DNA of 62,669 nt, filler included, from Bonamia ostreae (GCA_040357525.1; 41 parts of 41 records of this genome joined end to end with filler, not necessarily neighbours in it), one strand, 5' to 3'. Counted from the whole stretch's first letter, positions 137 to 60,808 are shown. The notes: a model not told the origin generated them from the sequence alone. Numbers and translations: made by a program.

Positions 137-1140
137 TTACAATTTTTGCGTTTTTTCAAATTGTCCGGGGCCTCTTTTTTCGTCGATCAATTCCATTATC
201 TTTTTTTCTTCTTCGCTTTTTTTGATTTTATTTTCGTCGATGTCATTTGAATCAGTTTGAATATTTTTGTCGTTCCATTGTTCAATTTTCGAAGCCATTT
301 TTCTGATTTCGTCATTCTTTTTGTTGATCATTTCTTCATATTTTAATTGCAGTTCTTTTAAGCTTTGCTCCTTTTTTTTCAAATTTTCAATTGTTTCTTC
401 TTTTTCTTTGTTTATTTCTAATTTTGAAATTTGCGAAACCTTTAAATTGGTCCAAACTTAAAAAAATGTTGTTTTTGAATTTTTGGGAATAATCGAATTC
501 CATTCTGGACGCGTTTTTTCTATCCGCGATTTGTTCTTTCCGCAATTTTATAATTTCGTTTTTCAATTCGCTATTTTCTTTTTTTAGAATTTCCATCTTT
601 CGCAATTTTGAAATTTTAAAACATTTTTATCAAAATTTTCTTTTGGACGATCACTTTTGACTTTTTCACAATTGCTTTTTTCTTTGTTTTCAGACAAAAA
701 ATTTTGATTGTCCAAATTTCTTATTTTATCTCTGAAAAGAATATTTTCAATCATCAATTTTTCCAATTTTTCTTCATAATCATTTTTGAGCTTCAGAATG
801 TCCGATATCGACTTGTTTTCGGACTTTTCAACCGCTTTTATCGAAATCTCTTTTGGAAATGACGACCCGTCAATATCACAATCCTCAGTTATTTCCAGCT
901 TAAAATTAGAAAAAATTGCACTTGTTTTTTGTAAATCGATTCTAAAGTCCAAAAATAGCCAAATTTTTGATTTTGGCCAAATCTGATTAACATCCAAAGA
1001 GCGCCTTCGTAGAAAATTCGGGCGACGCATTTCAAAGAAGGATCATTTAAATTCGCAGAAGGATGCCAAAAATTTCTGATGCACCATTCCAGACGCGATT
1101 TGTTGCTGCTAAGATTTTCTGCCAAATTAAGAAGGTCGTT
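137..1140 (-). CDS. Hypothetical coiled-coil protein (protist, multi-exon, 5' partial)
   Basis: K/E-rich ORF segments join in frame after removing GT-AG introns at 597-622 and 418-439, and probably one at about 943-992. Confidence 0.6.
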
Positions 1141-1185
1141 ATTTTTCGCCGACTTTTATGAAAATAGCAAATTTTGTTGCTCAGT

Positions 1186-1439
1186 TTTTGTCAAAATTGT
1201 GTAGAAAATGATTTAAAATATCGCAATTTTGTATTTTTTGTCAAAATTGTGTAAAAATGATTTAAAATATCGCAATTTTGCATTTTTTTGTCAAAATTGT
1301 GTAGAAAATGATTTAAATTATCGCAAATTTGCATTTTTTAATAAAAATTGTGTAAAAATGATTTAAAATATCGCAATTTTGCAGTTTTTTAATAAAAATT
1401 GTGTAAAAATGATTTAAAATATCGCAATTTTGCAGTTTT
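1186..1439. repeat. AT-rich tandem repeat, ~50-52 bp unit
   Basis: About 5 copies of tcaaaattgtgta(g)aaaatgatttaaaatatcgcaattttg up to the contig end. Confidence 0.9.
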
Positions 1440-1539
1440 NNNNNNNNNNNNNNNNNNNNNNNNNNNNNNNNNNNNNNNNNNNNTTAATTAATTAANNNNN
1501 NNNNNNNNNNNNNNNNNNNNNNNNNNNNNNNNNNNNNNN
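1440..1539. other. Artificial contig spacer (44 N + TTAATTAATTAA + 44 N); first of 40 identical spacers
   Basis: Identical 100-nt block recurs about every 1.53 kb; the linker has stops in all six frames; contig lengths fall monotonically from 1439 to 1422 bp. Confidence 0.99.
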
Positions 1540-1991
1540 TACGTAATATAAAAATGTTGTAATTTTATAATCTTTTTCGTGAATATATTATAATCTTTTT
1601 TGCCATATAACAGAAACTTAAAAAAAATTCTGTATTTAAAAATTTAAAATTTCGAAAAAATCGCTTAGAGAAATTGTTTTTATTGTAAAAGATGGAAATT
1701 GTTTGTTTAGGGCATGCTATATCATTTTTTATGGCGCAGTGAAGCTTAATTTTTTTGTGAATTGTTTTTTATTGAAAAATTGAATTTTTCTTGTAAAGGG
1801 GAAATTTTCATGCAGATATAAGCTCATTTTGAACATAAAAAATAAGGCTTAAACTGCCGCACAAAATTATTCAAATGAATGTTTTTGGGTGCTCTTAATA
1901 TTGTGGCTTATATCGGGAATATATTTATGTACTTTGTTTTTGAAATTAGGAAAAGCTACTTTAGTTTTTCCTAATAATTTATTGCAAAAAT

Positions 1992-2978
1992 TTATATTTG
2001 AATATCAGTCAAATTTTTCAAGTTTGTGTCGTTGAGGATGTCATTGAGCGATAAATTAAGCTGTTTGCTCTTTTCGTAGACTTTTGTAATGGATTTGTCG
2101 AATATGGCCATCGAAGAGGTTTTTAGAACTTCCATACAGTTTTTAAGTCGCACTACTTTTTCAAACAATTCAGCAAAACGTTCTTTTGATCTTTCTTCTC
2201 CGTTTTCCGGGTCGGATATGCTGATCCATATTCTTCCGTTCAGTCCTTTTTTAATTATAGGTTCAAACTTTTTCACTATAATTTCGGACATTTTAACCAG
2301 AATTTTGCTAATTTTAATATAAAAGTCACGTAACCAGAACGTGGCATTAAAATCCGCGACCATATAAAATAATGTCGGAATCAAATTAACTAACCTACCA
2401 CTATGTTTATTTGGTCAAACGGGTTAATAAATTGAGACTTCATTTTTCGTATTTGAACATGGGGAACAGTGACTAAGCAACCGTTTTTTAACTATTTATT
2501 GTCTTGAACAAAACCATTCCATATTTTACAGATCGAGTTTGGAGGTTTATTGAATCGTTTTGATGCATTTTCTGTATCTCTGCCGAGATCAAGTCACCTT
2601 CTTTGAAAATGTTCCGGATTTGGGATTCGTCAATGACGGTCTTTCTGTCCTTTAAGTATTTGAATTTCAACTTGAAAGCTCCCAGGAACAAATAAAGAAT
2701 TAACTAAAAGAGTCGCGTTGAACTTGCCGTTAATGTCAATTTTCCAGCCCCTATCGTTGACTTCTAAAACTCTACCAACGATGACATCGCCTACGTTCCC
2801 GATGTATCTAGAATTGATCGGTCTGACCGACACAAGTTTATTTGTCCGTTCTATGTATCCAGATATATTTGAAATGAGTTTTCCGTTTACCAATGATGTT
2901 CCATGACCTCTTAAAATCACTATTTATTACCTTATAAATCCTTCTTCGTGCACAGTCTGCTCTCCTGGTTGGGTATAT
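1992..2978 (-). CDS. RRP4: Exosome complex component RRP4 (5' partial, 4 introns)
   Basis: Spliced protein contains GFIRGHGT, RYIGNVGDVIVGRV, EGDLISAEIQ, LQTRSVKYG, GLNGRIWI; introns 2910-2930, 2650-2671, 2492-2514, 2246-2394. Confidence 0.95.
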
Positions 2979-3078
2979 NNNNNNNNNNNNNNNNNNNNNN
3001 NNNNNNNNNNNNNNNNNNNNNNTTAATTAATTAANNNNNNNNNNNNNNNNNNNNNNNNNNNNNNNNNNNNNNNNNNNN

Positions 3079-3325
3079 CCCCTGTGCGGTTGGACCCGTC
3101 GCAAATAAACAATGACCACCAACTCCTCTCTCGTGCGGTTGGACACGTCGCATTTGAGAAAGCGAAAACAACCCTTTCTTGTGCGGTGGTTTCGCGCGGT
3201 TGGACCCGTCGCTTTTGGAGATTGTAAAAAATTTAATTTCTCGTGCGGTGGTTTCGCGCGGTTGGAACCGTCGCATTTGAGAGATTGTAAAAAATTTAAT
3301 TTCTCGTGCGGTGGTTTCGCGCGTG
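3079..3325. repeat. GC-rich tandem repeat (~62 bp unit, core gcggttggacccgtcgc) overlapping the 3' end of the GT60 gene
   Basis: Four core copies; gtgcggtggtttcgcgcg recurs at 3181, 3243 and 3306. Confidence 0.85.
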
Positions 3326-4517
3326 AAACCGCCCCGAATACACTTCTTGGCTCAAATTTTTGCACTCTTTTGTTACAGGGTCGATCCCGAGCAAGTGGTA
3401 ATATTGCTCCAAAGAGCGTTTCGTCCCCATCGAATACAGTCCGATTTGCCTCAGATCGGCTGGGAATTCGTTGTCGGGTGCCATTTTGAACAGATATCGC
3501 AGCCTGGCGCTGCTGCGCTTTCCCTCTCGCTGCGTTCTTTCAAAGTTGACTTTCCAAAAAGAGGGCCGTTTTTCGTCCTTTTTGTCGGCGTAGAAGTGAA
3601 AGACGATGTCTTCGGAGGGCGCGTAAAAATCGTATCCGTGTGTCCAGAGACGGGTGGTCATGTTAATCTCCTCGCCGTCGAAGATGTGCGGCAGAAAAGG
3701 GTCGTTTTTGACTAGTCGAACACGGTCTGCTTTCGAAAAAGAGAATCCGCCGCCGAACATGGGCACCATTAAGGGCATTTGGGGGTCTGCGAGGGGATTG
3801 TGGATTTGGGCCGCGTTCTTTATTCGAGGCATTCCGTATTTGCCCTTTTGTAAAATAAATTAGATTCAGACGAACATTAAAATAATAAATTTGTTCTTTG
3901 TCGATTTGACCAACATGAAATATTTCAAAATGAAAAAACTTCAAAAGTAAACTGTCCAAAAGCCACAATAAGATTATCGATACCAATATTATCTTTTGTT
4001 ACCATGCTTTTTTCAACATCTCTCGGATAACTGGTTATTATTGCCATCTCGTTTCCAATTCGATACCACATTTTTAGTACCTTTTCGTCCCAATGGCGCG
4101 TAAACAATGAATGGCAATCTATTTGCATCGCAAAATCTTCATCTCCGCCTTTAATTGTTGTTACAATGATTTCTTTGTTGCAACATTAATTTTTTAAGTG
4201 CAAAATCTATGCTCAAATCAACCAATCATTTGATCTTGCATCGATCTAGCCCACAATGGTCCTTTCGCTTCTATCTCGCTTACTCTCCAAACACGGATTT
4301 GGTGTTTTCTTGAACAAATCGGATGTTTTTCTTTGTTTTCTTGTTTAAAAATCAAAACTTTCTGTGGCGAAGCACACTTTGGAAAAATCAGCGCAATCCA
4401 AATCCCTTGGATGGTTCTGTTGGAAAATGGCAAATCTCACTCTGTCTGGACACATCGCCATTTCCATCGCCGACAATATTGTACTTTTTGTCATTGTAAC
4501 AATAATTATTGTCCCTT
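3296..4517 (-). CDS. GT60-family polypeptide/Skp1 N-acetylglucosaminyltransferase (Gnt1/Gnt2-like), partial
   Basis: Motifs AKGPLWAR, MQIDCHSLF, IITSYP, FGGGFSFS, DPFLPHIFDGEE, RLWTHGYDFYAP, typical of the 'GlcNAc' (GT60) family. Confidence 0.85.
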
Positions 4518-7774: not shown

Positions 7775-8806
7775 ATGAAATGGATTTTTTTCTTTTCGAT
7801 TTTATTTGTTATTTTCGTATTTTTGTTTTCTTTCGCCATTCGTTTCTATCTAAATATGCTCGTTTTCACTTAAATTTTTTCTGCAATTATTCAAATTTAA
7901 AATTTTGCAAAATCATTCATTTGTTAAAAAGACGAAAGAAAACCCAAAAATCAGAGTTCCAAACTTCCAAAAATGTGAAAATAAAAAAGATTCGAAAATA
8001 ATAATTGTCGGCGCTGGGGTCGTCGGCAGTACATTGGCCATTTCGTTGGCTAAACAAGGGAGAGAGATCGTTGTCATTGAACGCGCCATTGGCGAAAACG
8101 TAGACAAAAAGAGAATTATTGGAGAATTGCTACAGCCCAGCGGAGTACTTTTGTTGCGGCAATTGGGGCTTTCACGTGATTTTTTTAAATTTAAAAAGAC
8201 GTTTTGTCGTTCAAAGAAAAATCGACGATAAACGGTTATCAAATAATCTTCGAAAAGAAAACAATAAATTGTCAATATCCAAAACAAAACAATCTCTTCT
8301 TCAACGGAATCGGGTTTCACAATTATCGACTTGTGCAAAATTTGCGCGACGAATTCAAAAATTATCCCAAGTTTAAAATCATTTTTATTGTACAAAAATG
8401 AAGTATAAAAGTGATAGAAGGAACAGCAAATAAATTGATAAAAGAAAAAAATGTCGTGAAAGGAGTGAAATATAAAAAAATTGCAAAATTTGAAAAAAGC
8501 GCACGTGAAAATTTTAAATCGGAATTTGCAGATTTTGTTATTGTGTGCGACGGATGTTTCTCGATATTTAGGAATTTGCCACAAAAGAAATCTGTTTACA
8601 CGCGAGTTTTGTTTTACGCAATTTTGTAAATGGTTTGCAAAATTTACGATTTTAAAAATGTCCAAAATATTTGGATAATTTGTCGATTCGTAATATTAAC
8701 ACAAAAGGGAAGTTTTCTGGGAATTTGCCTCAAAAATTGCAAACTTGAAGAGGACAAAAAAGCGATATTGATCATTAATGATCCAAATAATGTCTTAATT
8801 TATCCT
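7775..8806 (+). CDS. SQLE: Squalene monooxygenase/epoxidase (3' partial)
   Basis: N-terminal TM (MKWIFFFSILFVIFVFLF), IIIVGAGVVG FAD motif, RIIGELLQPSG, GIGFHNYRLV, IVCDGCFSIFR; introns 7862-7931, 8176-8198, 8371-8403. Confidence 0.9.
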
Positions 8807-8819
8807 GTTTATTATAAAA

Positions 8820-9132
8820 ACGAAAATTGCTTTTTTTGATAAATCGTTTTTGTTTAATTTTCGAAAAAATGCTTTTTAATTTAATCGTTTTATGTTAAAA
8901 TTTCGAAAAATGAAAATCGCTTTTTTTGTTTAAAGTTTTAAAAACGAAAAAATGAAAATTGTTTTTTTGATAAATCGTTTTTTGTTTAAATTTCGAAAAA
9001 TGAAAATCGCTTTTTTTGTTTAAAGTTTTAAAAACGAAAAAATGAAAATTGTTTTTTTGATAAATCGTTTTTTGTTTAAATTTCGAAAAATGAAAATCGC
9101 TTTTTTTGTTTAAAGTTTTAAAAACGAAAAAA
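8820..9132. repeat. AT-rich tandem repeat, 90 bp unit, probably intronic
   Basis: aaaacgaaaaaa recurs at 8941, 9031 and 9121; degenerate copies upstream start just after a putative GT donor. Confidence 0.85.
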
Positions 9133-9232
9133 NNNNNNNNNNNNNNNNNNNNNNNNNNNNNNNNNNNNNNNNNNNNTTAATTAATTAANNNNNNNNNNNN
9201 NNNNNNNNNNNNNNNNNNNNNNNNNNNNNNNN

Positions 9233-9306
9233 ACACCTTTAGGTATCATTCTACCACTAACCTCTTTATCCATCTTACCCTTTACAAAGTCATTAACTAA
9301 TTTCAT
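9233..9306 (-). CDS. N-terminus of a crAss-like/Bacteroidetes phage tail stabilisation ('muzzle') protein, partial
   Basis: MKLVNDFVKGKMDKEVSGRMIPKG resembles the F.KGKMNKD...R..P.G N-terminus of this family; starts 2 nt after the upstream stop. Confidence 0.7.
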
Positions 9307-9308
9307 CC

Positions 9309-10670
9309 TTAAAGCATTTTGTTGTATCCAACATCAGAACCAAGCTTTTGAATTATCTCCCCTGGCTTAGTGAACATTCTTCTTTGTGACTTTCTTACTT
9401 CATTATAAAATTCCCTTCTAGCAGATTCTTTTTCTACTCTAGGAACGTTTCTTAATTTATCTATATATCTATGATATATTCCAGCTTCAAGTGCAGTCTG
9501 GAAGTATTTATGTATCCTTAATTTCCTTGGGTCTTTCTCTGCTGCAATAGGGTCAGAAAGATATTCTATTACTACATGAGTAAATTCTGATGGTATTCCA
9601 TCAAGTAAAAATTCTCTAGCTTGAGAATCATATCTATATGCTCCTGTATAAGATTGTTGACCACCTTTTATGCCATATAATGCATTATCATATATGAAAT
9701 CCCCATCTACTGTTGGACTTGCTAACCAATATTTTTTTGAACCATTAGACACTTCACTGCTTCTAGTTCCTTGTGCTTTTATTGGATAACCTAAGTTATC
9801 AACTATTATTTCTCCATCTTGATCTTTGATATATTTCTGAGAGATATTAAGTTTTTTATTTACAAATAGTGGTAATAAAATTCCTGAAGGTGATACTAAA
9901 GATAATCTTACAAAGTCAACAAAATCCACTGGAGGTATTACTTTATTTGCTGTGCTTATCTCAGCTTCATATACTCTTAATTCACGTTCACAATCGTAAC
10001 TTAAATCTTGAATAAGTCTCTTAGCTAATAACAAAGCATGGAATCTATTTATTCCTTGCAAGTAAGAATCTCCATTAATAGATTCTATCATTATATTATC
10101 AATAATATCTTTTAAAAAGACAGACTGTGAATCACTGTCTGATGATTCTTGAGTAACTATAAGAGATTTAGTAACTAATAAATCTTCCTTCAGAGTTAAT
10201 ATAAAAGTATCAGATAAATCTACATATCTATCATTTCTATTTACTGATACTGTTATCTCCGTTGTAAAATTTGCATTAGCAGCTAGTAAAATAGAACCCC
10301 ACAATAAAGGTGCTATATCTTCCTTAGCAACCACATATACTATCTTATTTACACTATCTATTTTAAATACATATCCATACTCTAAATCATCTCCTACCGT
10401 GCTAGGTGGGAGTGGAGTAGTGTATGTCTCTTTCCTTATAGGTATTATTCCTAGTAAATCACTTTTACTATGAGAAGTGCATAATTTTGCTGTTGAACAT
10501 CCTATAGCTGTTGTCTCTGAATCTTCTGTCGAAGTCCAATATGAGGTATATTGTAAAGGACTTTTAGGTAATGATGATAAAGAATCTATTAAATCCTCAA
10601 ACTCATCTTGAGCAGGAAGATACCAGCCTATCTCTTCAGTATATAATGGTGGTACATAGTTAATAGCTGC
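9309..10670 (-). CDS. Phage tail tubular/ring protein with N-terminal DUF1566-like and BACON-like extensions (5' partial)
   Basis: Intronless frame open to the contig edge. The C-terminal ~270 aa (VFLKDIIDNIMIE...AKRLIQDLSYD...PVDFVDFVRLS...VVIEYLSD...IHKYFQTALEAGI) resemble crAss-like ring proteins; upstream GWYLPAQDEF...YWTSTE...IPIR is DUF1566-like. Confidence 0.8.
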   Translation of the reverse strand, partial: AAINYVPPLYTEEIGWYLPAQDEFEDLIDSLSSLPKSPLQYTSYWTSTEDSETTAIGCSTAKLCTSHSKSDLLGIIPIRKETYTTPLPPSTVGDDLEYGYVFKIDSVNKIVYVVAKEDIAPLLWGSILLAANANFTTEITVSVNRNDRYVDLSDTFILTLKEDLLVTKSLIVTQESSDSDSQSVFLKDIIDNIMIESINGDSYLQGINRFHALLLAKRLIQDLSYDCERELRVYEAEISTANKVIPPVDFVDFVRLSLVSPSGILLPLFVNKKLNISQKYIKDQDGEIIVDNLGYPIKAQGTRSSEVSNGSKKYWLASPTVDGDFIYDNALYGIKGGQQSYTGAYRYDSQAREFLLDGIPSEFTHVVIEYLSDPIAAEKDPRKLRIHKYFQTALEAGIYHRYIDKLRNVPRVEKESARREFYNEVRKSQRRMFTKPGEIIQKLGSDVGYNKML

Positions 10671-11093: not shown

Positions 11094-12746
11094 GTAAGAA
11101 GAAATCACACTCAATGTCCTTCAAATATACGAGTGCATTAATAAGATATAGAAAATAAAGGTTCTCCGTGTGATACATGCCTTACAACAAGTTATGAAAT
11201 ATTATTTTGAGCTTGAATACTTATCAAATTATGAGAAGTATGGTTTGAGGACTGGCTTTAAGTGGTAATCTATGTAAGAACTATGCAGGACGAAAAATAA
11301 GATGCCCAGCAATACAATTAAAGTATCTTGAAATGATTGATTTTGAAAAAAATCACGCTCTTGATTCATTTCATTAAAATGGCCTTCATTGCTTGTTAAG
11401 ATGTTTAATCATCTGAAATCATATTCAGTCTCAAAAATAAGTTTCCATTATTTTCTTTAAACGAATCACTAAACTAAATAAACATATGTATACATATCTG
11501 GCGAACTGTCAAGAGAGATAAATAGATATTTGAAAGTAATACCATGGACAGTAAAAGAATTACAAAAACCAATCGGAAACGTTCACAAATTAGTTACATA
11601 TTTTTAAACCCATGCACGACCTGGAATACTGACATTTTATTATTATGTCCCTATGCTAACTCTTTGATGTTGAAGATAAAATTGTTAGCGAGACCATGTC
11701 AGACGAAGAGAAAGGTTGAAGTAAGATAATTCAGTTTTGCAGTATTTGTTTTGTGCGCATATGTATTTGGTTTAGTTCGTATGTGTTTTATTGTAGTATG
11801 ATTACAAAGGGATTGGACACAAGTTCTACAACCTCATACCTCTCTCTCTCTCCCTATATACTAATGCCATAAATACAAAGCATTTCATAATATGCTTGAT
11901 TATTAATTAATTTAAGGAATACGAGTATACTATGAGATAATCAGTAATAGACATGACATCTAACAACGTTCGAAATATATGTAATAGGCTGATATACAAT
12001 TTTAAATTAATAAATAAATCGATTACGTTACTTAATAAATGCATGAATAACACTGAGAAGATATTCATTTTCCTTATTGCAGAGAGGCGCAATATCCAAC
12101 AATAGAACATGCGTGTTCACTATTTGAGCTTAAGTTTGTCAACACTAAATATGTTGTTAAATAATTCATGTCTGGCATCTTTATATTTATAACAAGGACT
12201 ATAAAAANNNNNNNNNNNNNNNNNNNNNNNNNNNNNNNNNNNNNNNNNNNNTTAATTAATTAANNNNNNNNNNNNNNNNNNNNNNNNNNNNNNNNNNNNN
12301 NNNNNNNGTTTTCTTGTTAGAAAATTGGTCGTAAGACCTTATTTTGCATCGACCGATTCGACGTTTTCTGTTTTTGCTATATCTTTTTTTAGATTTCGCC
12401 ATTTTGTTTTGGCTAAATCTTTTTCCAGTATACAAATATATCGACTTTCTGTAGAATCAAAATTAGACATGTCGCTTAGGACGACATGTTTTTGAAATTA
12501 GATCGATATTCAAAATTTTTAAAAATTTTCTTCACTTTATTCAAAAACTATTTTTCATTATTTCTGAAAAGAATTCAAAAAATGAGCAAAAACAAAATTT
12601 AGTTGTTTCAGAAAGAAAATTATATCTTCAAATTTGATATTTTTTGTTACAATTGAAATTCCAAAATTTCTTTTATCAAACGACGACATTTTATTATAAC
12701 ATTTTAATCCCGAAAATTTATTTTGAGACGAATAAAAGCAAAATTT

Positions 12747-13106
12747 TTACTCATTTTTATTTTCAGAAAGATCATTTTTCATAGCTTGGACAACTCTTTG
12801 CAGTTTTGCATATTCTGCTCTTGCTTTCTCGATTTTGTCGTCGAGCAATTTCGTGTTGGCTTCAGCCGATTTGATGATTTTCGTCGCGTTCGCGGAATGG
12901 CTTTTTCTGTTTTTGTTTTTGACGTGATTCAGGAACAGATAGAGCGACAAGAAGATTAACGCGCCATAAACATATTTTCGGTTCGGATTTACCGAGCTTT
13001 TATCGATTTTTGGAAAAATTGGGCTATCGCCAGAAACTTTAGTTTTTTGGCAATATCTCCTTAATCTGAGCAACGACTTTTTGACTAATTTTCTTGAACG
13101 CAACAT
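12747..13106 (-). CDS. Small hypothetical single-TM coiled-coil protein
   Basis: 119-aa ORF with TM YVYGALIFLSLYLFL and a heptad-like C-terminus; start uncertain. Confidence 0.5.
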   Translation of the reverse strand: MLRSRKLVKKSLLRLRRYCQKTKVSGDSPIFPKIDKSSVNPNRKYVYGALIFLSLYLFLNHVKNKNRKSHSANATKIIKSAEANTKLLDDKIEKARAEYAKLQRVVQAMKNDLSENKNE

Positions 13107-13187
13107 TCCAAAACTATTTTATATGTTAAATCGCTAAAGTCGACGTATTTAGCGAAAATTTAGTCGCAAACTGACTTTAGTCCAAAA

Positions 13188-13743
13188 ATGACTTTAGTTC
13201 TCTCGGACATCAGAAAATTAAATTTGAACGACCGATCTCGAATTTCGGATTTTTGTAGTAGCTCAGATGGCGATTTTTACGATTTGTTGGGAATACCCGA
13301 CAAAAGACGGATTGCGACGGAAAGAGAAATCCAGATCGCTTGTTTTCCATTTTCTATTTCAGACAGGAAAAAGTCGCTGCGTTTTCATCCGGACAAAGCC
13401 AAACAGTGCTCCGACAGCGAAAAAGCAAAAATCCATTCTTTGTACGTAGAAATACAGACCGCGTTCGAAACTTTGATCGACTCAACGAAAAGAAGAATTT
13501 ACGATTCGAAGCTCAGTTTCGACGATAGTTTGCCCGAGACTTCTTTGGTCCCGAAAGAAAACTTTTTCCCCACATTTTATCCCGTTTTCGAACGAAACTC
13601 CGTGTAAGCTAAAAATTAAACAAAAGTTTTTCTGTGATAAAACCTGTTCCGTTATTGGGAGACGAAAACACACACATCGATCAAGTTTTCAGGTTTTGCG
13701 AACATTCAATATTTTATCGGACTTGTCTAATGTCAGATTTTAC
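13188..13743 (+). CDS. DNAJC2: Zuotin/DNAJC2 J-domain co-chaperone (3' partial)
   Basis: DFYDLLGI...FHPDK J-domain followed by the zuotin-specific FDDSLP...FFPTFYPVFERNS...PVPLLGDEN; introns 13342-13362, 13604-13626, 13693-13736. Confidence 0.9.
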
Positions 13744-16913: not shown

Positions 16914-17027
16914 AACATTTTTAAATTTACAAAAAATCGCAATTGTTTTAAACAAACATTTTTAAATTTACAAAAAATCGCAATTGTTTTAAACAAACAT
17001 TTTTAAATTACAAAAAATCGCAATTGT
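16914..17027. repeat. AT-rich tandem repeat, ~41 bp unit
   Basis: Three copies of aacatttttaaatt(t)acaaaaaatcgcaattg at the contig start. Confidence 0.85.
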
Positions 17028-21418: not shown

Positions 21419-21522
21419 NNNNNNNNNNNNNNNNNNNNNNNNNNNNNNNNNNNNNNNNNNNNTTAATTAATTAANNNNNNNNNNNNNNNNNNNNNNNNNN
21501 NNNNNNNNNNNNNNNNNNCAAA

Positions 21523-22731
21523 ATGTTCGTCAATATCAATATAAATTTTACAAAACAAAAACTCCTATAAAACAAAAATCCGAAGAGCCATAATCAGGAA
21601 AGAACACCAAACAAAAAACCAAAAATATCGAACTACTACAAACACGCGAAAAAACGATCTTTGCCCGGCGACATCTACGAAACGCCCCCGAAATACGGAA
21701 AAGAAGGAGAAGACGTCGTTTACGACCGATACATCGCCAGCCGGGCCACATCGGCCGTTTGCTCGCCATTCTCCAAACCACTCGCCTTTTCCAAGAACTT
21801 CTCCACCAGCGACTCGCTCTCCGTCTCCTCCGAAAACCCCCTCGACCTCGGCGCTCCCACCCCCAAATCAAACAAACCGCCAAAACCGAACCTCAAAAAC
21901 GTCAAATCCGAAACCGAAAATTCGGACCAAATCCAATCGCGGAAAATCTTTTGTTCCGACCGCGAAAAACAAAGAAAGCTCCGGAAAACGAGAATCCGAC
22001 TGGAAATGCCCGCGGAGCGCCAACTGAGTTTCCACACTCCGAAGAAGAAGCCGCGTTTGCCGCGAGTGGCCGCAAATTTCGAGACGGTCCCGCTGGCCAA
22101 CCCGCGGCTGCGGCGGGCGCTCTTTCCGAGCGCGGGGCGACGCATCGCGCAGCGGCCGCTGCGCACGCTCGACGCGCCGGGGCTGCGCGACAACTTTTAC
22201 CAGTCGCTGTTGGACTGGTCGGCGCGCGGCTGTGTCGCGGTGGCGCTGGGGCGGACGGTGTACTTGTACAACGAGCACTCGCACGAAGTCGCGGCGCTGT
22301 TCTCGCAGGGCGCGGGGGCGCCGGAAGTGACGGCGCTGGCGTGGGACGGGCGCGGGGCGCGTCTGGCGGTGGGGCTGGCGAGCGGGCGCGTGGAGTTATG
22401 GGACGCGGCGGCGAGCAAGTTGGAGCGCGCACTGGAGGGGCACCGGGCGCGGGTGGGGCGGGCGGCGTGGCGGGCGGGGCAGCTGGCGACGGGGAGCAAG
22501 GACAGAGCGGTGGCGGTGCGCGACCCTCGCGCGAAGGGCGGGGGGACGTGGCTGCAGCAGCACAAGCAGGAGGTGTGCGGGCTCCGCTGGGCGCCGTTTT
22601 CGGAGAGGGCGCTGGCGTCGGGGGGCAACGACAACGAGCTGCTGGTGTGGGACGTGGGCGAGAAAGCGGTTTCGCACACGTTTTCGGAGCACAGAGCGGC
22701 GGTGAAGGCGATCGACTGGTCTCCGCACAAA
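21523..22731 (+). CDS. FZR1: APC/C activator Cdh1/Fizzy-related (Cdc20 family), 3' partial
   Basis: C-box-like DRYIASR, RRIAQRPLRTLDAPGLRDNFY..LLDWS, HKQEVCGLRW, LASGGNDN, EHRAAVKAIDWSPH; probable first intron 21529-21585. Confidence 0.9.
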
Positions 22732-22759
22732 GTTTTTTGTCGCGTTAGTTTTTTCATTT

Positions 22760-38527: not shown

Positions 38528-39295
38528 ATGAGCAAACAAGCACATCCGCATTGGGAAGTCCCAAAACCGAATTTAAATAAAAATCTCTTCGTTTACAATT
38601 CGCTCACTTCTCAAAAAAATCCTTTTTACTCTTTGAACGAGAACATCAGTTTTTAAACTAAATCGACAGTAAATTGGTACGCCTGTGGCCCAACTGTCTA
38701 TTCAAGTGCTCATCTCGGACATGCGCGAGCATATATGACATTTGACATAATCCGCAGAATTTTAGGAGAATATTTTCATTACGACATCAATTACGTAATG
38801 AACATTACGGACATAGACGACAAAATAATATTGAAAGCTCGTCGGAATTTTTTGTTGGAAGCTTATTTGGAAAAAAATGAAAAGTCAAATTTGGAGAGAA
38901 AGTTTAAAAGTGCAATTGAAGAAAGTGTTGGCAACGCACTCGGAAAGTTGGAAGAATTGGAAGAAAAACTAAAATTGGCAGATGAAAGACAAAAAAGCGA
39001 AATCGAACAAGTTATAAAAGGAGAAAAAGTAAAATTGAAGAGCGTTCGAAAAATGAAATCTTTTTCTATTAAAAAATTGATTGAAACTTCTCGTTTTATT
39101 TACGAAATTTTTGTGGAATTTTTGTTTTGTCGTTTTCAAAAAAATTTCAATAAAATTTTTTCGTTTTCAAACAAAAGAAAGCAGAGATGTTTTGTCTGAA
39201 AGTCTCGATAGAGAATCCGGCGAAAGAGAAATCGATTTTTCAATCTTCAAAAAACATTCCAAAAAGTTCGAAGAAGAATTTTTTGAAGATATGAA
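38528..39295 (+). CDS. CARS1: Cysteinyl-tRNA synthetase, N-terminal part
   Basis: [21 protein letters not shown] (HIGH motif), [20 protein letters not shown]; introns 38649-38669 and 39093-39177. Confidence 0.96.
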
Positions 39296-39309: not shown

Positions 39310-39793
39310 TCTCAAAAAATAAAAAATAATTTCAAAAATTAAATAATTTCAAAATAAAAAATCATTTCAAAAATTAAAACAATTTCAAAATAAAAAACAA
39401 CTTCAAAATAAAAAAAACAATTTCAAAATAAAAAATAATTTCAAAAATTAAAAAACAATTTCAAAATAATTTCAAAATAAAAAATCATTTCAAAATAAAA
39501 ACAATTTCAAAACAATTTCAAAATAAAAAACAATTTCAAAACAATTTCAAAATAAAAAAGAATTTCAAAAATTAAAAAACAATTTCAAAATAAAAAAACA
39601 ATTTCAAAATAAAAACAATTTCAAAACAATTTCAAAAATTAAAAAACAATTTCAAAACAATTTCAATATAAAAAATAATTTCAAAAATTAAAAAACAATT
39701 TCAAAACAATTTCAAAACAATTTCAAAACAATTTCAAAATAAAAAAACAATTTCAAAATAAAAAAAATTTCAAAATAATTTCAAATTAAAAAA
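39310..39793. repeat. Intronic low-complexity satellite (aatttcaaaa[c/t] units)
   Basis: Dozens of aatttcaaaa variants following the GT donor at 39296. Confidence 0.9.
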
Positions 39794-41422: not shown

Positions 41423-42709
41423 CAAATCTCCTGCCCAATATCTAACTCTTTTCCCGTCTTCGAATTCGAACGCTTTTATTAAATCGCTTATAAGACGCGG
41501 GTCATCTCGAAGTCGGTGCCAAGTGGGAATTGGCAAAGTCGCCATCCCGCTTTCTCTGGCTGTTCTCCTCGCATCCTTCACCATGTTCTTGGCTCTCTCC
41601 TCGTTCCGTTCTACTCCCTTGTAACGTCCTTCATCGTCCACGAGGATCTCTGCTGCTCTCAAGTAGGCATCCGGCATCCCGAAGACACCCGCTGTGACTA
41701 AGTAGAAAATTGCCTTCTTCGCATTTCGCTCGAGTTCAAGTGGTCCGCTGTCGGCGAGCAGAAAACCCAGATCTCTCTGCGCCCCTTTGTGCCCTCTGTT
41801 CGCCGCTTTGAACATCCACTTCAAAGCATTCTCCGTCTTTCCGTCGATTCGTTTTTTCGTTTTGCTATTCTTTCCGTTTTGTCTCCGGTCTTCTTTTACT
41901 GTTCCATCTTTTTTTGATGTTCCATCTTTTTCTATGTTTCGATCTTCTTTTTCTATGTTTCGATCTTCTTTTACTGTTCCAACTTTTTCAACGTTTGCCA
42001 ATTTGCCATCTAAACTTAAAGCCTTAGCCATCTCTAACTGGATGGACAAACGACCAAAACTAGACATCCCCTCCACGTCGCCCCCTTCCGCCGCTCGCAA
42101 AAACCAATTTAAAGCTTCATTCGGATTTCTTCTCTTCGCTTCTAGACTTCCAGCCAAACGCTGCGAACGAGGCAAATTGCCCTTTTCGACATCGCCCGCT
42201 TTCTCCGCCAAACGCATCGCGACATGCAGATCCTTCTTCTCGTAGATGAACCCCAAATCGCACATCGCCCTAAAATTGCCTTTCTCCGCCGCCTTTTTGA
42301 GCCATCTTAGAGCTTCTGCTGAGCTCTGGTCTACTCCGATTCCTTCGTGAAGCATGTGGCCGACGGTCGCCATCGAGTCGACATGTCCCTTCGAAGCGCT
42401 GCGGACGAAGTGGCGGAATGCTTCTCGGACGTTTTTCTTGACGACCTTTCCCGCGAGAAGCAGTTTGGCCATGTGCGCCTCTGCTTCGGGGTGTCCTTGC
42501 GACGCCGCTTTGGCCATGTACAGACGAGATTTCTGGGTGTCCTTTTCGAAGCCATTCGAGCCGTCCAAGAAGTTGACGGCGAGTTCGTATTGTTCATTCG
42601 CGTTCCCTCTTTCGGCGAGATCAACGAGAAAGTCGCTTTTGGAGGAGAAAAGGGCCTTTAGCGGAGAAAGTCGTTTGCTGTGGAGTAGTGCTGATTTTTT
42701 GAGCAGCAT
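41423..42709 (-). CDS. Sel1-like repeat protein with putative mitochondrial presequence (3' partial)
   Basis: Repeated A..G...A...LG Sel1 motifs (e.g. EALRWLKKAAEKGNFRAMCDLG); N-terminus MLLKKSALLHSKRLSPLKALFSS is basic and lacks acidic residues. Confidence 0.9.
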
Positions 42710-44519
42710 TTTGAGATTTCAAATTTACTGAGTTGTCAATAAAGATTTTTTAGTCAGTAAAGAATCGAAATCAAATATGTCGTTTTAGCATTTTGACCAT
42801 TTACACAAAAATCATCAAAATTTTCATTTAGGATTTGATAGCAATAACGGNNNNNNNNNNNNNNNNNNNNNNNNNNNNNNNNNNNNNNNNNNNNTTAATT
42901 AATTAANNNNNNNNNNNNNNNNNNNNNNNNNNNNNNNNNNNNNNNNNNNNATTTAGAAGGATTATGTTTTATGAATAATAGTTTGTATTGATATCTTGTT
43001 TTGATGTAGGCCTGCTGTTTGACTTTCTTCTGCATTTACGTAATATATTGTCTCAGATCAATAGTTTTTTTTTTTATGATATTTGATTCTTTGGAGGTAT
43101 ATTGACGAAAGCAATGTCATTCTATATCATGCGTCGCTTTCATAAAAAAAATATATCTTGATAGGATGGACATATTGCAGATTCATTTTGTCGCTATCAG
43201 GGACGTAGAATTCTGATAATGAGGATGACGACACTATGCTAAACATGGTGGTATGCTTAAAACAATAACAAATGTTGCAATAGGCAACTAAGGACGATAC
43301 GATTATAAAATATATACACTTTTGTAACAAGACATGTTTACTGTTTCCACCATAAATTGATCTTGTGTGTTTTCTCTTCTGTTTTCAAACAAGATAATTA
43401 GATTTTAAAGATTGAACATTTTAGATAAGATCGGTTTTTCCGGGATATATTAGCGGTTTTATTGATTTTGATGAGCTGCCCTAAATATTCCTTAAGAGAT
43501 ATGACATGATATGGGTAATTATATGTGTCTTGGTTTACTGACTTGCAAATCTGCTGAATGTGTGTTTTGTACCTGTGCAGAACTTGAATACAGATGAATA
43601 AAATTATCATCGTTAATAAATAAACCATCGTAGATATATTTAAATGTCACATTAAAAGCCACAGCAAGATATGTTTTCCTCTCACTTAGAAGTTTTTTAA
43701 TAAATCATGCAAAAGATCTTAATTCACTGTGTATAAATTTGAATTTATATCATCAATTAAGAGGGAATTGTAAATCTGAGAGTAATGTGAGAACATTTGC
43801 CTTTTAAAAAGAAAAAAAAAATGATGGAATAGAAGAGACGGACGGAAATGTTAACGCAATTAAAAGTGATACATTACGGCTCATTTATATATATCCAATT
43901 AAAAGTATTACTGCATCCATGAATTCAGAAAAATGCATGAGAAAGACTCATCGTGTATAGATATATGTTGATTATGTTGTTGTTTATCAAACACTTCCTA
44001 TACGCTAAACATGATGTAACATTAATGTTGAATTTAGAACAATCAGTCTCGTTCGTAAGAAATATAATGCAAAGTTAAAGTTACTCATATCAAGACTTTT
44101 CTCAACATGTAACTGAAATCAATTTTTACATTGACACAAACTAACCAACATAACAATTATGAAATCATTCTGAATGAAAAAAATCCACCCAATATTTTCC
44201 GGTTAGAAATAAATTACATGTGTCCAATAAACTTCTATAACCCGACGGTCTCTCCTAAAATCCCCTATAACCCAAACTTCTGTCCTTTTTGAAGGCACTT
44301 CTCATTGTCATGATACTTTTTTCGGAATGTATAAAATGTAGAAGAGAAATATTGAATCATACGACACACTAACACAANNNNNNNNNNNNNNNNNNNNNNN
44401 NNNNNNNNNNNNNNNNNNNNNTTAATTAATTAANNNNNNNNNNNNNNNNNNNNNNNNNNNNNNNNNNNNNNNNNNNNCATTCTTAAAATATGTCGGTATA
44501 TGTATATTTATGCTGATCA

Positions 44520-46004: not shown

Positions 46005-46235
46005 AAAATGGCGTCAAAATAATAATAATAATAAAAACGAACAAAAATTGTCGAAATTCGGGAAAATGGCGTCAAAATAATAATAATAATAAAAACGAAC
46101 AAAAATTGTCGAAATTCGGGAAAATGGCGTCAAAATAATAATAATAATAAAAACGAACAAAAATTGTCGAAATTCGGGAAAATGGCGTCAAAATAATAAT
46201 AATAATAAAAACGAACAAAAATTGTCGAAATTCAG
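46005..46235. repeat. Near-perfect tandem repeat, 58 bp x 4
   Basis: Units start at 46005, 46063, 46121 and 46179; located downstream of the USP stop. Confidence 0.95.
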
Positions 46236-46308
46236 AAAAATTACAAATATGCAACAAATTCAGTAAAAGACAAAAAATAACATAAAAAAATTGCCAATAG
46301 GCAAAGAT

Positions 46309-49786: not shown

Positions 49787-50482
49787 ATGTTTATTTTTAT
49801 TTGGAGTCCAGCCAAAGACGTTTTCCGTATGCTTATCCTCGATTTCATTAATTTCAAACTGCGTTTTCTCGGCTAATACTTGGAACTTGTTTATGTATTT
49901 TTTCCTTTTCATACAATTTTTGTCTCCAGATTTGTGTTTTCCATTGCAATTGATACACTTCTTAGAATCTTTGTTCGGGCATTCCTAGAAGAGTGGCTCT
50001 CAGCACAATTTCGGCATTTGCTTCTTGCAAAACAGACCTTTGTGACGTGTCCGTATTTCTGGCAGTTAAAGCAGATAGTACACGCCTTTCATATTTTGAT
50101 ATTCTGAATTTTGAGCGTTGAATTGGACATGGGCTTTGATTTGTTTTTTATTAAATCAGCTATGTAAGTATCGTCATTAATTTGTCTTTTTTGTTATGTT
50201 TATGTTTATTTTTATTTGGAGTCCAGCCAAAGACGTTCTTCGTATGCTTCTTCTCGATTTCATTAATTTCAAACTGCGTTTTCTCGGCCAATGCATGAAA
50301 CTTGTTTATGAATTTTTTCCTTTTCATACAATTTTTGTCTCCAGATTTGCGTTTTCATTTGCAATTGATACACTTCTTAGAATCTTTGTTCGGGCAATCC
50401 CTAGAAGAATGGCTCTCAGCACAATTTCGGCATTTGCTTTTCGCAAAACATACCTTTGCGACGTGTCCGTATTTCTGACAAT
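49787..50482 (-). mobile_element. Two tandem degenerate copies of a non-LTR retrotransposon ORF1 (Gag-like) zinc-knuckle region
   Basis: CFNCQKYGHVTKVC...KCRNCAESHSSR.C...KCINCNGKHKSGDKNC triple CCHC knuckle; copies at ~49787-50080 and ~50202-50482 carry stops or frameshifts. Confidence 0.8.
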
Positions 50483-52248: not shown

Positions 52249-53531
52249 ATGGCAAAAGACAAAGTGAAAATAGCTCCTTCGATCAAATTCTGCATCGCCT
52301 TTATCGGTCTGCAGATAATCACGACTTACATTACCACGATTTCAGGTTTCAAAATGCGACCAAGAAAAATTAATTTGGTAAATTATTTTAATTTCCATTA
52401 AGTAAAACTTAGCGGAAAATCAAGCTAATTTTTTTTAAAGTTGCTGACATTTGGACACAACTCTTTTCGCGTAACATTTATACTACGTTCAATTATGTCG
52501 GTTCTATCCCAAATGTTGTTCTCGCTTTGTTTATCCCTCTTATGATGAAATTTGTCTCTATTTCCAAAATTTTCTACATCAACGCAGTCACTCAAATCGT
52601 CTCTTGCGCCGTGTTGACTTCCATCCCTACGATTTTAATCAAATCAAACAGGGACGTCGCCCTGGCGATGACCTGTTTTCAAATTTTACTAAAGTCTTGT
52701 TCTTACTAATTTCTTCTTCCGGCTTCGCTATCACTCAAACAGCCATTTTCGCGTTTTATTGGCTTTCAACAATTTTCCAAAAGATTCGCAGCCGAGTTTT
52801 CAAACCAGACGGTCCAGTTTTACATAACGGGGTTGTCCATTGCAAACCTCTTGTACGGTCTGTACTTCCTGCCCTTCCCTAACAATGTTCCAAACCTGCA
52901 AAATAGGACGATATGCTACTATGCCTTGCCACTTGTCGTCCATTTCGTTTCGATTCTCGTCTTCTATTTCACGTCAAAGAAAATCACCAAAAAGGAAGAA
53001 AGAGTTCATTTTTCCAATTTTCAGAGAGGAATCGAAAAAGACGAGAGCGAATTGCAACGCAGCTTCACAGAGAGTTTCAAAGTCGTGTTGAAGAAGAAGT
53101 GGCTAATTTTCACTCTCAATTTCTGTTTTGTTTTATATTGTAGTTATGTTCTTGGGCACGTTCTTGGTTTACCCCTCGTTTATGTTTCAAGCGACTTCGT
53201 CCAATCCCAATCTGAGGGATTTTTGGCCCAAAATCCTCATGATCATTTTCGGGATCAGCGAGGTCTCCGCTCGCATCATTAACACTTTGAAGATACGGTT
53301 CATCGTGAAAGGGATAACCGAGAGCAATATCTGGATGTTTTTAAGTCATTAAAAGTTTCTGCGTGGTGCGCTACATCGTCTGCATATTCCCCTTGTTTAC
53401 TTTCCTGGCGATGAACGGAGTCTTCTACTTGTCCCCGCTGTTGATCGACATCTGCAACGGTGTTTTCTACGCCATTCTCGCGTTCAGTCTCGGAGTGCTG
53501 TTTTATAGATTTAACGAAAGCGGGAACAACA
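52249..53531 (+). CDS. Equilibrative nucleoside transporter (SLC29/ENT-like), 3' partial
   Basis: Many TM helices; spliced AITQTAIFAFAAEFS...YITGLSIA and VLKKKW...FLGTFLVYPS fit the ENT pattern; introns 52675-52694, 52753-52783, 53125-53143, 53337-53355. Confidence 0.7.
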
Positions 53532-57519: not shown

Positions 57520-57672
57520 CCCGTATTGTTCTGCTAATGAGTTGGCAATATCATCCATCTTTCTATGATCTTTAGCTGTTGCATCAATAACATACACAAC
57601 ACAGTGCATTAATCCATCGGTAATCGAAGATGTATTGTACACGTGACCATTAGATGCTTCGTGATCTAAATC
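57520..57672 (-). CDS. IFI44-like exon (host-type, possibly pseudogenic)
   Basis: tttcag acceptor followed by ...SITDGLMHCVVYVIDA, resembling the IHCVVYVIDA motif of IFI44/IFI44L proteins. Confidence 0.55.
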
Positions 57673-58202
57673 CTGAAATTTAGAATTTATGAATAAAGCG
57701 CATACATTCGTTAAGGTATTTATACTGGTAGACCAGGAATTTGATGAATGAGAGGTCATGTGATTGTAAACACCAGACCGCATAAGAGTAAATCGCATCA
57801 ATTACTCTATCGTCAACCTCACTGTATTAAAATTATTAACCAGTCTTTCAGATGAAATTTTGCGAGGTGAACACTCTTAACTACTAACCTACCGCAACAG
57901 ATATCAAGTCAAAGTAATGCACAACATATTCATGGGAAATTGCACTTGATACATGCACATTGTTTGTCTGCTAGACTATACGAATATTACTTGTATTACT
58001 TTTTAGATTTTATTTATTGGCATCTTTATTATATCATTTTTATAAATGTTGTTTAGGTTGAAAGTTTCAAACCAATAATTTTGTCATTTGTTACTTAGTG
58101 ATNNNNNNNNNNNNNNNNNNNNNNNNNNNNNNNNNNNNNNNNNNNNTTAATTAATTAANNNNNNNNNNNNNNNNNNNNNNNNNNNNNNNNNNNNNNNNNN
58201 NN

Positions 58203-59560
58203 ACCAAGTCCGGTGAATACGTCGGCAAATTGCTTAGTAAGTTCATCTTTGGTAAGTTCTGGTTGTTGTTTGATTGACATGATGTTCTCATGATTGACTT
58301 TCAGCAGGTTCATTTGTTGAACAGCCTTACTACCAAGAATAGGTGTCCTTGGATCGTCTATTATGACAAAGTCAGCCTTGTACTTCATGTTGTTTTGGGG
58401 GTTTATGAATGTTAGGTTGCATTTCCCCAGAGGACGAACTTTAGTGTTATTGTACATGATAAGTACTTGATTTGTAGAGTTGATTTTCTCAGAGCCACAC
58501 AGTAGACTTTTATTTATTATGTTACAGGATGCCCCTATATCCAATTCAAAATTTACGGGTCGGTCCTTGAGTAGCATTATGGCATACAGTTGATTATGCT
58601 TGATTTATGCTGCTGACGGATTCATCTGCAAGTTCCATTGATAGCGCAAAGTAGTCCAAGTCGGAGTCACTATTATCATTTTGAACAATGTGGATGTCTT
58701 GTCGATGTTTGCTTAAACACATTTGCTCAAAATGGTTGCTTTTGCCGCATAATTTGCATTCATGACCAAAAGCGGTACATTTGCGTTTATTATTCTCGTG
58801 CTTCGACCCACAATATTTGCACTTAACCGTTGCTGGTGATCGCAGATTCCCAGATTTGTATGAAGGCATACTTTTATTTTGCAGTTTGTTTTGTATAGTC
58901 CCACGTTGAGCTTGCATGTTCTTGGAATTGGAAGTTGCGACATGTTTCCTCTTTTTTAACAAAGTTGACTTATGTTTGTCCATTTGCTGTCAACTCTAGC
59001 GCTTTATTTCTTTCCTTAGAGAGCTCAGACGATCGGCATAGTGTTATACACTTTTCAAGATTGAGATCGAGTTCCCTCAAGAGTCGTTCGCGAGAGATGT
59101 GTCATTAGTACCGCAAAGCATTCTATCACGGATAAGTCAATCCCTTAAATCTCCAAAGCTACACGTCTCCGCAAGGATTCTCAGTTCAGCCAGGTATTTA
59201 TCGAATGGTTCACCACCTTCTGCTACAGAAGAATTTGTATCGTTCAACGGTTTCATTTTTGCGAGGGTCGCAGTGCTTATCGAATTCTTTGATAATCATG
59301 TCTATTTTCCGATCGTTCTCTTCAATTTCGAACGTATCTCCTTCTACGACCTTAGTGAATTTCATAGTTTTATACATCTCGTGGCCCTGTGTTCCGAGCA
59401 AGTACAGTAACATTTTGACCTTCTGAATGTCAGGTTTGTCACTCATTGTAAGATCTACATAGATGTTTAGCTCCTCTTTCCATTTCTTCCAAGCAAGTGA
59501 ATGGTTTTTTTGCGTCAAAGTTCATCGACTCTGGAGGATTTAGTTTGTCAATCGTGCTGG
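58203..59560 (-). mobile_element. Degenerate Ty3/Gypsy LTR retrotransposon gag-protease region (metazoan type)
   Basis: AWKKWKEELNIY...LLYLLG...PRKNETVERYKF gag, double zinc knuckle CKYCGSKH...CKLCGKSNHFEQMC, protease FELDIGA, FADVFTGLG; broken by stops and frameshifts. Confidence 0.9.
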
Positions 59561-59811
59561 TAAGACTCTACCTATTGACACACCTTGTACTTTACCGATG
59601 CAATGTTTTTGACAAGATTCGGTTGNNNNNNNNNNNNNNNNNNNNNNNNNNNNNNNNNNNNNNNNNNNNTTAATTAATTAANNNNNNNNNNNNNNNNNNN
59701 NNNNNNNNNNNNNNNNNNNNNNNNNTGCTCAAAATGCCATTTTATTGCCAAATTTTGATCGTTCTTTTCAAAAAATTTTGTTGTTGTTCAAAATATCATT
59801 TTATAAAACAG

Positions 59812-60808
59812 ACGAAAGTGAAACTAGAACTCAAAAAACAAGAAAACGAATCATTAAAAACTGAACTCAAATCCTCACAGAAAGCACAAATCAGCGAAAA
59901 TTTGCTGTTAAAAAAGCAACTGCGCGATTCCCGCGTGAGCGAGACAAATCTGCGCCATTCTTTGCTTCTCAGAGACATCTCCATACGCAGCCTCCAAAAG
60001 GAAAATTTGGAGATCAATCGAATCTGCCAAAACCTCGAAAAAGATCCATTAAAAATCTCGCCAATAAACTTCGACGACAGCTCAAACGGCAACAAATTGA
60101 TCAGAAATTTCGGAAAAAGCGTTTTCAGAGAAGCTTCTTTAAAGGCGCAGATCAAAAATCTCGAACGCGAGATCGAATTCAAAAACTTTTCCGAACGTTT
60201 TCTTATAAACTAAAAAAGACGACGAAGCCTCAAAACGTCAAAGCGAAAATTATTTTGACGACAAAAATTCGAAAAAAGTTTTGAACAGAGATAACGAAAA
60301 AACATCAAAAAATGTCCAATCGGACAACGAAAAAAGCGCTAAAATCCAAATTGACGAAAATAAAAAAAATGACGGTTTATCGGCCAAAAAATCGATGAAG
60401 GACAATTTGTTCCGGATAAAAAGTGATATGACAACAGAACTTTTGTCGGAAAATCAATTGAGCATGAAAAGACTTTCGCTCTATTCCAAAACTTTCGATA
60501 AAGAAAAATCCTCTTCTGTCAACGATCTCCCGAATGAGCTCAAAAACGTGGAAGATGAGATCGTTTTGGCGACGTTTGAAAAGAAGAAAGTTTCCGAATC
60601 GCTGAAAATAGTTGAAAAGAGCGACTATTCGGAGCGTTCGAAGGTCTTCAAGGCGTTTTCGAGTTCGAGTTCCGATGTCTTTGCGGTTTTGGAGAAAAGT
60701 TCGGAAGAGGACATTGCGGCGAATATGTTGTTAATTGTGCAGTCGATAAAGGACACGCCGTTGTGGCTGCACAGAGAGAGAAAAAGAATTTTGAGTATTG
60801 TTAGAGAC
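59812..60808 (+). CDS. Hypothetical coiled-coil protist protein (partial)
   Basis: Two ORFs join in frame via the 22-nt intron 60197-60218. Confidence 0.6.

Follow-up and report, generated by a model that had tools for sequence, protein, structure and literature searches.

The stretch of DNA analysed here (the window, 62,669 bases in all) carries short segments that begin with GT, end with AG and interrupt open reading frames. We consider it very probable that these segments are U2-type GT–AG spliceosomal introns, removed by the ordinary mechanism, in the nuclear genome of the oyster parasite Bonamia ostreae (Haplosporida, Ascetosporea, Rhizaria), which is read with the standard genetic code. 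Taken jointly, this reading holds that introns at or close to the minimum size (19–31 nt) make up a large share, with others reaching about 150 nt, and that all sizes follow a single, lineage-typical consensus, which opens with 5' GTTT(T), continues with an A/T-rich body that lacks a pyrimidine tract, and closes on an A-rich 3' end, mostly AAAG. An earlier reading of the bare sequence (the original prediction) had listed 17 such segments as ultra-short introns and had attributed them to a divergent, simplified system of splice-site recognition. All 17 were located exactly as predicted, with GT...AG on the inferred strand and lengths of 19–26 nt, and the predicted counts of their ends were correct (GTT at the start of 12/17, AAG at the end of 11/17). 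The observation is largely right, while the interpretation exceeds the data.

The window is composed of 41 separate scaffolds of 1422–1439 bp each, ordered by length and joined through N44-TTAATTAATTAA-N44 spacers (at 1440–1539, 2979–3078 and onward). Because it is a chain of separate scaffolds, coordinates that cross a spacer have no biological meaning, and the span 418–60218 given in the original prediction runs over 40 of the 41 unrelated scaffolds. The GC content of the window is 31%, most pieces having 24–36% and pieces 3, 15 and 28 more; the published draft of Bonamia ostreae comprises 9705 scaffolds (N50 1417 bp), with a GC content of 33.3% and, on average, 2 introns per mRNA (PMC11069148). 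The NCBI proteins MHBO_003365, MHBO_003376 and MHBO_003359 of B. ostreae thread exactly onto pieces 16, 35 and 9, respectively, and come from contigs just as long as these pieces (1434, 1424 and 1436 nt), giving identity to named records in 3 of the 3 scaffolds examined among the 41. The first of these, a 212-aa "hypothetical protein", is 100% identical to the translation of piece 16, where a Ykt6-like SNARE frame ends with CCRLY followed by TAG. The frame of a PI4-kinase on piece 18 closes with TGA after 27119, where the C-termini of its homologues end. Since the SNARE terminates at TAG and the PI4-kinase at TGA in line with the ends of their homologues, the standard code applies.

Transcript-level, gene-model and homology evidence

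Evidence at the level of transcripts comes from the scaffold carrying the Rrp4 gene (1540–2978), the one scaffold covered by a comparison of sequencing runs, namely the DNA runs X1–X3 and X4, a small run to which the label "RNA?" was given as a guess. An X4 contig of 721 nt (depth 372), with 0 other letter differences from the window, lacks 23 nt at 2492 and 22 nt at 2649/2650 and joins 2244 to 2394; all three skipped segments are present in X1–X3. Every intron spanned by the contig (3/3) is removed exactly. Two of them are listed introns on the minus strand, 2492–2514 (23 nt, GTT..TAG) and 2650–2671 (22 nt, GTT..AAG), the latter within the S1 domain, where the flanking exons match positions 1–44 and 48–73 of the RRP4_S1 profile. 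The third, outside the original list, is an intron of 149 nt on the same strand (2246–2394, GTTAGT..AAAAAG), which appears in X4 as a skip of 149 nt, CT..AC, with the cut shifted by +1. The contig stops at 2892, short of another listed intron of this gene, 2910–2930 (minus strand, 21 nt, GTA..AAG), which has in-frame stops inside and is preceded by 15 upstream codons to the scaffold end.

The NCBI gene models on pieces 9, 16 and 35, which are themselves predictions, splice three listed introns exactly as predicted and remove four more, whose ends were set at the GT–AG positions that yield the identical protein. On the minus strand of piece 16, MHBO_003365 splices the listed 23920–23942 (23 nt, GTA..AAG) of the Ykt6-like SNARE gene and also removes an additional intron of 96 nt, 23642–23737 (GTTTTT..AAAAAG), at the junction between HVF and VQNNG, as does the gene finder described below. 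On the plus strand of piece 9, MHBO_003359 splices 13604–13626 (23 nt, GTA..AAG), which contains a stop. MHBO_003376, on the plus strand of piece 35, splices the listed 52675–52694 (20 nt, GTT..AAG) and removes three additional introns at 52346–52440 (95 nt, GTT..AAG), 52753–52783 (31 nt, GTT..AAG, with ends moved 4 nt from the threading output) and 53004–53024 (21 nt, GTT..CAG). The introns are already implicit in public annotation, at least seven of those described here being spliced in public models.

Two of the models treat listed introns differently. The intron 13342–13362 (plus strand, 21 nt, GTT..CAG), a multiple of three in length and free of stops when unspliced, is retained in MHBO_003359 (piece 9, 12308–13743), which carries a 7-residue insertion, CFPFSIS, within its J domain. 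With the intron removed, the J domain is continuous, the downstream exon beginning at position 22 of the DnaJ profile; the unspliced frame spends 78 residues on 63 profile positions. A paralogue, MHBO_002239 (P0153), may likewise read into an intron after KKEER. On piece 35, MHBO_003376 (52108–53531) runs through a likely 19-nt intron, the listed candidate 53125–53143 (plus strand, GTT..TAG), into a short polar tail and a stop near 53280, leaving a second listed candidate, 53337–53355 (plus strand, 19 nt, GTT..AAG), outside the model. What resemblance the product has to a nucleoside transporter is confined to the first third, with a match to Nucleoside_tran positions 6–101 of 309 that is below the cut-off (P0152: 20.5 versus 29.8 bits). 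Frame logic places the first candidate, splicing of which leads into 69 more open codons of hydrophobic character; the second contains a stop, joins 76 and 59 open codons, and lies at the 99.7th percentile of a position weight matrix (PWM) built from the independently supported introns. The disputed C-terminal exons gave no family by Pfam or PDB in either reading. At least two NCBI models in the window look truncated or appear to contain an inserted stretch, owing to a tiny intron left unspliced; as these models are predictions, their disagreement with the original list does not refute it.

Homologous proteins provided a further line of evidence. For the PI4-kinase gene, piece 18 was compared by tblastn with 40 representatives of more than 550 aa, taken from 151 proteins, and the best six chains were inspected. 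These six chains contain five frame changes, two of which coincide with listed introns on the plus strand. At 26190–26214 (25 nt, GTT..AAG), homologue residues 711/712 abut over 26187–26211 as the frame changes, and at 26999–27020 (22 nt, GTT..AAG), residues 571/573 of P0017 flank 26992/27018. Additional introns on the same strand, all GTT..AAG, were placed at tblastn frame changes at 26332–26377 (46 nt, one of 2 open-frame GT–AG options), 26590–26645 (56 nt, the sole GT–AG option) and 26752–26836 (85 nt, one of 3 options, picked by its fit to the homologues).

In a squalene monooxygenase gene, the exons on both sides of the listed intron 8176–8198 (plus strand, 23 nt, GTG..AAG) are collinear with the PDB chain 6c6n_A, the solved human squalene monooxygenase. 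Residue 64 of the 65-aa upstream exon (7980–8174) aligns to residue 64 of the chain (E 1e-11), and residue 8 of the downstream exon aligns to residue 74; this second match is weak (E 0.37), although it is the best one and its spacing is gapless. A cysteinyl-tRNA synthetase (CysRS) gene contains the listed intron 38649–38669 (plus strand, 21 nt, GTT..CAG), which has a stop inside and is followed by an exon that matches CysRS from its second residue. The upstream exon gave no match in PDB or Pfam, and a search of the ESM Atlas confirmed CysRS only.

Other listed introns were placed by frame logic and are recovered by the gene finder. On the minus strand, 418–439 (22 nt, GTT..TAG) joins 62 and 93 open codons, the unspliced frame meeting a stop 9 codons after, and 597–622 (26 nt, GTT..AAG) joins 140 and 69 open codons, with an unspliced stop 3 codons after. 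The former has alternative acceptors at 406, 400 and 397 that restore the frame too, and the latter scores at the 93rd percentile of the PWM. Also on the minus strand, 34881–34902 (22 nt, GTC..TAG) contains a stop and joins 62 and 34 open codons, with a PWM score at the 44th percentile only. On the plus strand, 60197–60218 (22 nt, GTT..AAG) contains a stop, joins 156 and 203 open codons and reaches the 99.6th percentile; an alternative, 60197–60227, restores the frame as well.

Over the whole list, the exact ends are independently supported in nine of the 17 introns: two by the X4 contig, three by NCBI models, two by PI4-kinase homologues, one by the squalene monooxygenase chain and one by the DnaJ profile. 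Some of the other eight may have wrong ends. When left unspliced and read in the standard code, 15 of the 17 lead to a stop within the intron or at most 10 codons downstream. The exceptions are 13342–13362, where the frame stays open across a length divisible by three, and 53125–53143, which is followed by 45 further open codons.

Consensus and lengths of the introns

The splice consensus was derived from 25 introns, of which 15 are independently supported (3 by removal at the RNA level in X4 and 12 by gene models or homologues) and 10 come from the original prediction only. All of them, 17/17 listed and 8/8 additional introns, start with GT and finish with AG. At position +3, where GTRAGT has a purine, the 25 introns show T (20), A (3), G (1) or C (1); T stands at +4 in 15/25 and at +5 likewise in 15/25. 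At the other end, A occupies position −4 in 17/25, and position −3, a pyrimidine in YAG, shows A (18), T (4), C (3) or G (0). The last 10 nt before the AG consist of 49% A, 37% T, 9% C and 5% G across the 25 introns. Pyrimidines make up 46% of this interval, equal to the intron overall, which confirms the predicted absence of a pyrimidine tract. Among the 15 independently supported introns, 13 begin with GTT and 13 end with AAG (p about 4e-4 each), against local backgrounds of 0.413 for T after GT and 0.415 for A before AG.

The introns fall into a short class, with 18/25 at 19–31 nt and a mode of 22–23 nt, and a longer one, with 7/25 at 46–149 nt; the long ones are all GTT...AAG. The eight additional supported introns measure 21–149 nt, and the lengths as a whole are spread more widely than the few nucleotides of a narrow-range ultra-short system. 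Lengths divisible by three occur in 3/17 listed introns and in 4/19 introns of at most 31 nt, a small sample. Further introns were predicted by a gene finder blind to splice motifs, which used GT, AG, stops and codon usage only, under the standard code. Its predicted models contain 25 introns beyond the original list, 20 starting with GTT and 14 ending with AAG, many of them 39–149 nt long. A codon-usage gene finder run under table 6 was dropped as unreliable.

These lengths bear on the meaning of the consensus. The original prediction had described GTT and AAG for ultra-short introns; these ends are not special to them, as the supported introns of 46–149 nt have the same ends throughout. Because the long supported introns share GTT...AAG, the odd consensus is the general splice consensus of the organism, and it belongs to Bonamia introns in general, not to the ultra-short class. 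What endures of the earlier interpretation is that these are GT–AG introns of spliceosomal type, that many are extremely short, and that their signals depart from GTRAGT, the pyrimidine tract and YAG; the idea that these signals are peculiar to ultra-short introns does not. Pairing of the 5' U-run with the 3' A-run in a hairpin was considered and rejected, the complementarity being 4.0 versus 3.86 for swapped partners and the folding energies being near zero and close to those of shuffles.

Splice-site recognition and alternative explanations

In introns as short as these, the branch adenosine must lie near the 3' end, and a pyrimidine tract cannot contribute. For the Bonamia introns, the branch adenosine would fall among the last ~10 nt, which are rich in A, and the first AG that follows it would serve as the 3' site, unaided by a pyrimidine tract. 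The usual 5' end of U1 snRNA is ACUUACCU, with which a GUUUU 5' site would pair poorly. Because positions +3 to +5 are U, the 5' site would be read with little classical U1 pairing; either U1 would be altered, or the choice of the 5' site would rely on other contacts.

That the splicing machinery itself has changed is a reasonable suggestion from the splice sites, which we advance tentatively. Its fullest form is the divergent, simplified splice-site recognition of the original prediction, with the 5' end of U1 changed or lost and U2AF65, U2AF35 and SF1 lost or divergent, a state that would lie on the way to the reduced mikrocytid spliceosome and that would extend, rather than exclude, our explanation of the segments as ordinary U2-type introns. 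We regard this form as possible, though on the doubtful side. It is favoured by the predominance of U at +3 (20/25) and mostly at +4 and +5, by A at −3 (18/25), by the absent pyrimidine tract, and by the drastic reduction of intron numbers and sizes in ascetosporeans (PMC13746701). Against it, the scans of the window yield no data on the machinery, having returned no Rfam match, no tRNA and, with Pfam, no splicing-factor domain. Moreover, the genome paper describes B. ostreae as having "canonical introns" and places the losses of splicing genes at the ancestor of paramyxids and mikrocytids, not in Haplosporida, and its supplement records for B. ostreae the gain of a "U1 snRNA binding" orthogroup, and the loss of the "U2AF complex" for the paramyxid ancestor only (PMC11069148). 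These supplement entries do not suggest stripped-down splicing in Bonamia.

Judged by the splice-site sequences, the Bonamia spliceosome could conceivably have shifted its preference to GUUU at the 5' site and to an A-rich 3' site that lacks a pyrimidine tract, though we would not count on it. If true, the 5' end of U1 would have co-evolved or become dispensable, the choice of the 3' site would be independent of U2AF65, and haplosporidians would represent a still-living stage between normal splicing in Rhizaria and the mikrocytid system, which lacks U1 and has 16-nt introns.

It is unlikely, in our estimate, that the list is in good part a product of its own selection. According to this alternative, AT-rich DNA nearly always offers some GT..AG pair at a frame change, so that the exact ends and the counts of GTT and AAG would be partly self-selected, and the frame changes themselves stem from true introns with other ends, from assembly indels or from decayed genes. 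Several controls speak for it. A screen for frame restoration, in which 17–31 nt were removed so as to join two open frames of at least 30 codons where the unspliced frame soon closed, gave 119 loci for GT–AG versus 111–185 for composition-matched decoy end pairs, so that decoys restore frames as often; an earlier screen of this kind gave 495 candidates and no specificity relative to decoy pairs. The motif GTTT(N11-23)AAAG occurs 92 times in the window versus 103 ± 10 in shuffles, that is, at chance frequency, and about 90 chance matches in 62 kb bear the end motif of the real introns. Some sites also offer several GT–AG pairs, as at 418–439 and 60197–60218.

These controls weigh against our reading of the segments as introns too, together with the following points. 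The PWM ranks 405 of 3275 background GT..AG segments at or above the median of the introns from the original prediction only, and because so many background segments score that high, splice signals alone cannot identify introns. AAG is only modestly above background in this same set (5/10). No clear branch motif was seen: YTRA is found in 18/25 introns and absent from 7/25, and the last YTRA lies 1–42 nt from the 3' end. Evidence at the RNA level covers 3 introns only, in a run whose RNA label is a guess, and eight of the 17 listed introns are supported by frame logic only. Finally, the NCBI models retain 13342–13362 and do not splice 53125–53143, and 53337–53355 lies past the model stop; the first two of these disagreements also favour self-selection of the list.

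The splice signals are real but information-poor. Because frame restoration and the bare motif perform no better than chance, the case for the introns depends on the RNA contig together with gene models and homology. Set against self-selection are the independent support for the exact predicted ends in 9/17, the stronger consensus in the independently supported set (13/15), and the PWM scores of the 10 introns from the original prediction only, which are significantly above those of the 3275 background segments (Mann–Whitney p = 2e-4). A ciliate origin, with TAA and TAG read as glutamine (table 6) and ciliate-type tiny introns, draws on the AT-rich DNA, on frames open across TAA/TAG and on an intron size near the Loxodes mean of 19.3 nt (PMC11441545), and was rejected with practically no residual doubt, as the proteins have identical counterparts among Bonamia ostreae records, the TAA/TAG met in frame sit within further, longer introns, and genes stop at TAG or TGA at the ends of their homologues.

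Known short introns and other features of the scaffolds

The ciliates, nucleomorphs, Mikrocytos and microsporidia named in the original prediction are analogies, the actual source being a haplosporidian. One of the closest comparisons is with the mikrocytid species Mikrocytos mackini and Paramikrocytos canceri, which, like Bonamia, belong to the Ascetosporea, are intracellular parasites of marine invertebrates and have AT-rich genomes with introns at the lower size limit (PMC10245619). Their 224 introns are 16 nt (217/224) or 17 nt long, have a highly conserved sequence and occur in certain gene classes only, and in their much reduced spliceosome U2, U4 and U6 alone were identified (PMC10245619). 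Bonamia differs in having introns of 19–31 nt plus 46–149 nt, about 2–5 per gene fragment, with metabolic and transporter genes included. Ciliates also possess tiny introns, with a mean of 19.3 nt and a mode of 17 in Loxodes magnus (PMC11441545) and 15–16 nt in heterotrichs, where the motif is GTAAWWTTTATWTAG, with a GTA donor and a TAG acceptor (PMC13685798). These resemble the short class of Bonamia in length, in A/T-richness and in leaving no room for a pyrimidine tract; however, ciliates are an unrelated lineage with other genetic codes and narrow intron lengths, whereas Bonamia mixes long and short. Chlorarachniophyte nucleomorphs, which belong to Rhizaria in a wide sense, have short GT–AG introns of 18–21 nt in a reduced genome (as cited in PMC10245619). 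A nucleomorph is the relict nucleus of a green-algal endosymbiont, whereas the Bonamia introns, longer ones among them, are in the parasite's own nucleus.

The available portions of the genome paper yielded no statement of intron size or consensus, and the word "intron" appears 0 times in the four supplementary files searched (PMC11069148). Literature searches gave no description of Bonamia intron size or consensus, the older haplosporidian actin-gene papers and some supplements lying outside the search. Those actin-gene papers reportedly mention small introns. What is new here is the description of a size class and a consensus for Bonamia introns, apparently never described before. Among the pathogens of flat oysters, Bonamia ostreae is a major one, and its genome exists only as a fragmented draft; knowledge of its 19–31 nt GTT...AAG introns would improve its gene models. 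The description also brings in a lineage whose minimal introns follow the same atypical consensus as its introns of about 100 nt. Through the kinship of Bonamia to mikrocytids, whose spliceosomes are among the most reduced known, it becomes testable in which order introns shrank, the consensus changed and factors were lost.

Several scaffolds have other features. Piece 15 (21519–22952) carries an intron-free open reading frame (ORF) of 399 aa for a CDC20/Fizzy WD40 protein at 55% GC, piece 28 (41423–42850) a 432-aa Sel1-repeat ORF at 47% GC, and piece 3 (3079–4517) a GlcNAc-transferase (PF11397) at 43% GC; a 453-aa ORF on piece 7 (9233–10670) matched no Pfam family. These four pieces are atypical in composition or structure and may be contaminants or acquired genes. 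Piece 15 nonetheless terminates in an AT-rich tandem repeat resembling those at the ends of other scaffolds. Such repeats, with units of about 30–110 nt, are found at many scaffold ends, including 1185–1439, 8883–9132, 16914–17027, 22756–22952, 35030–35206, 39316–39793, 46005–46241 and 60831–61144. Intergenic tandem repeats of this kind probably break the assembly, which would explain its 1.4-kb N50.

On piece 1, a coiled-coil ORF at 47–140 (minus strand) matches the GRIP domain up to profile position 30 of 44 and then meets a TGA. The sequence beyond this TGA and a TAG presumably resembles the remainder of the domain, and the region could represent a further unrecognised intron or the decayed end of a gene. 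Piece 33 contains an identical 29-nt stretch at 49789–49817 and 50204–50232, 415 nt apart, and neighbouring candidates repeat too, suggesting a direct repeat of about 415 nt within this scaffold.

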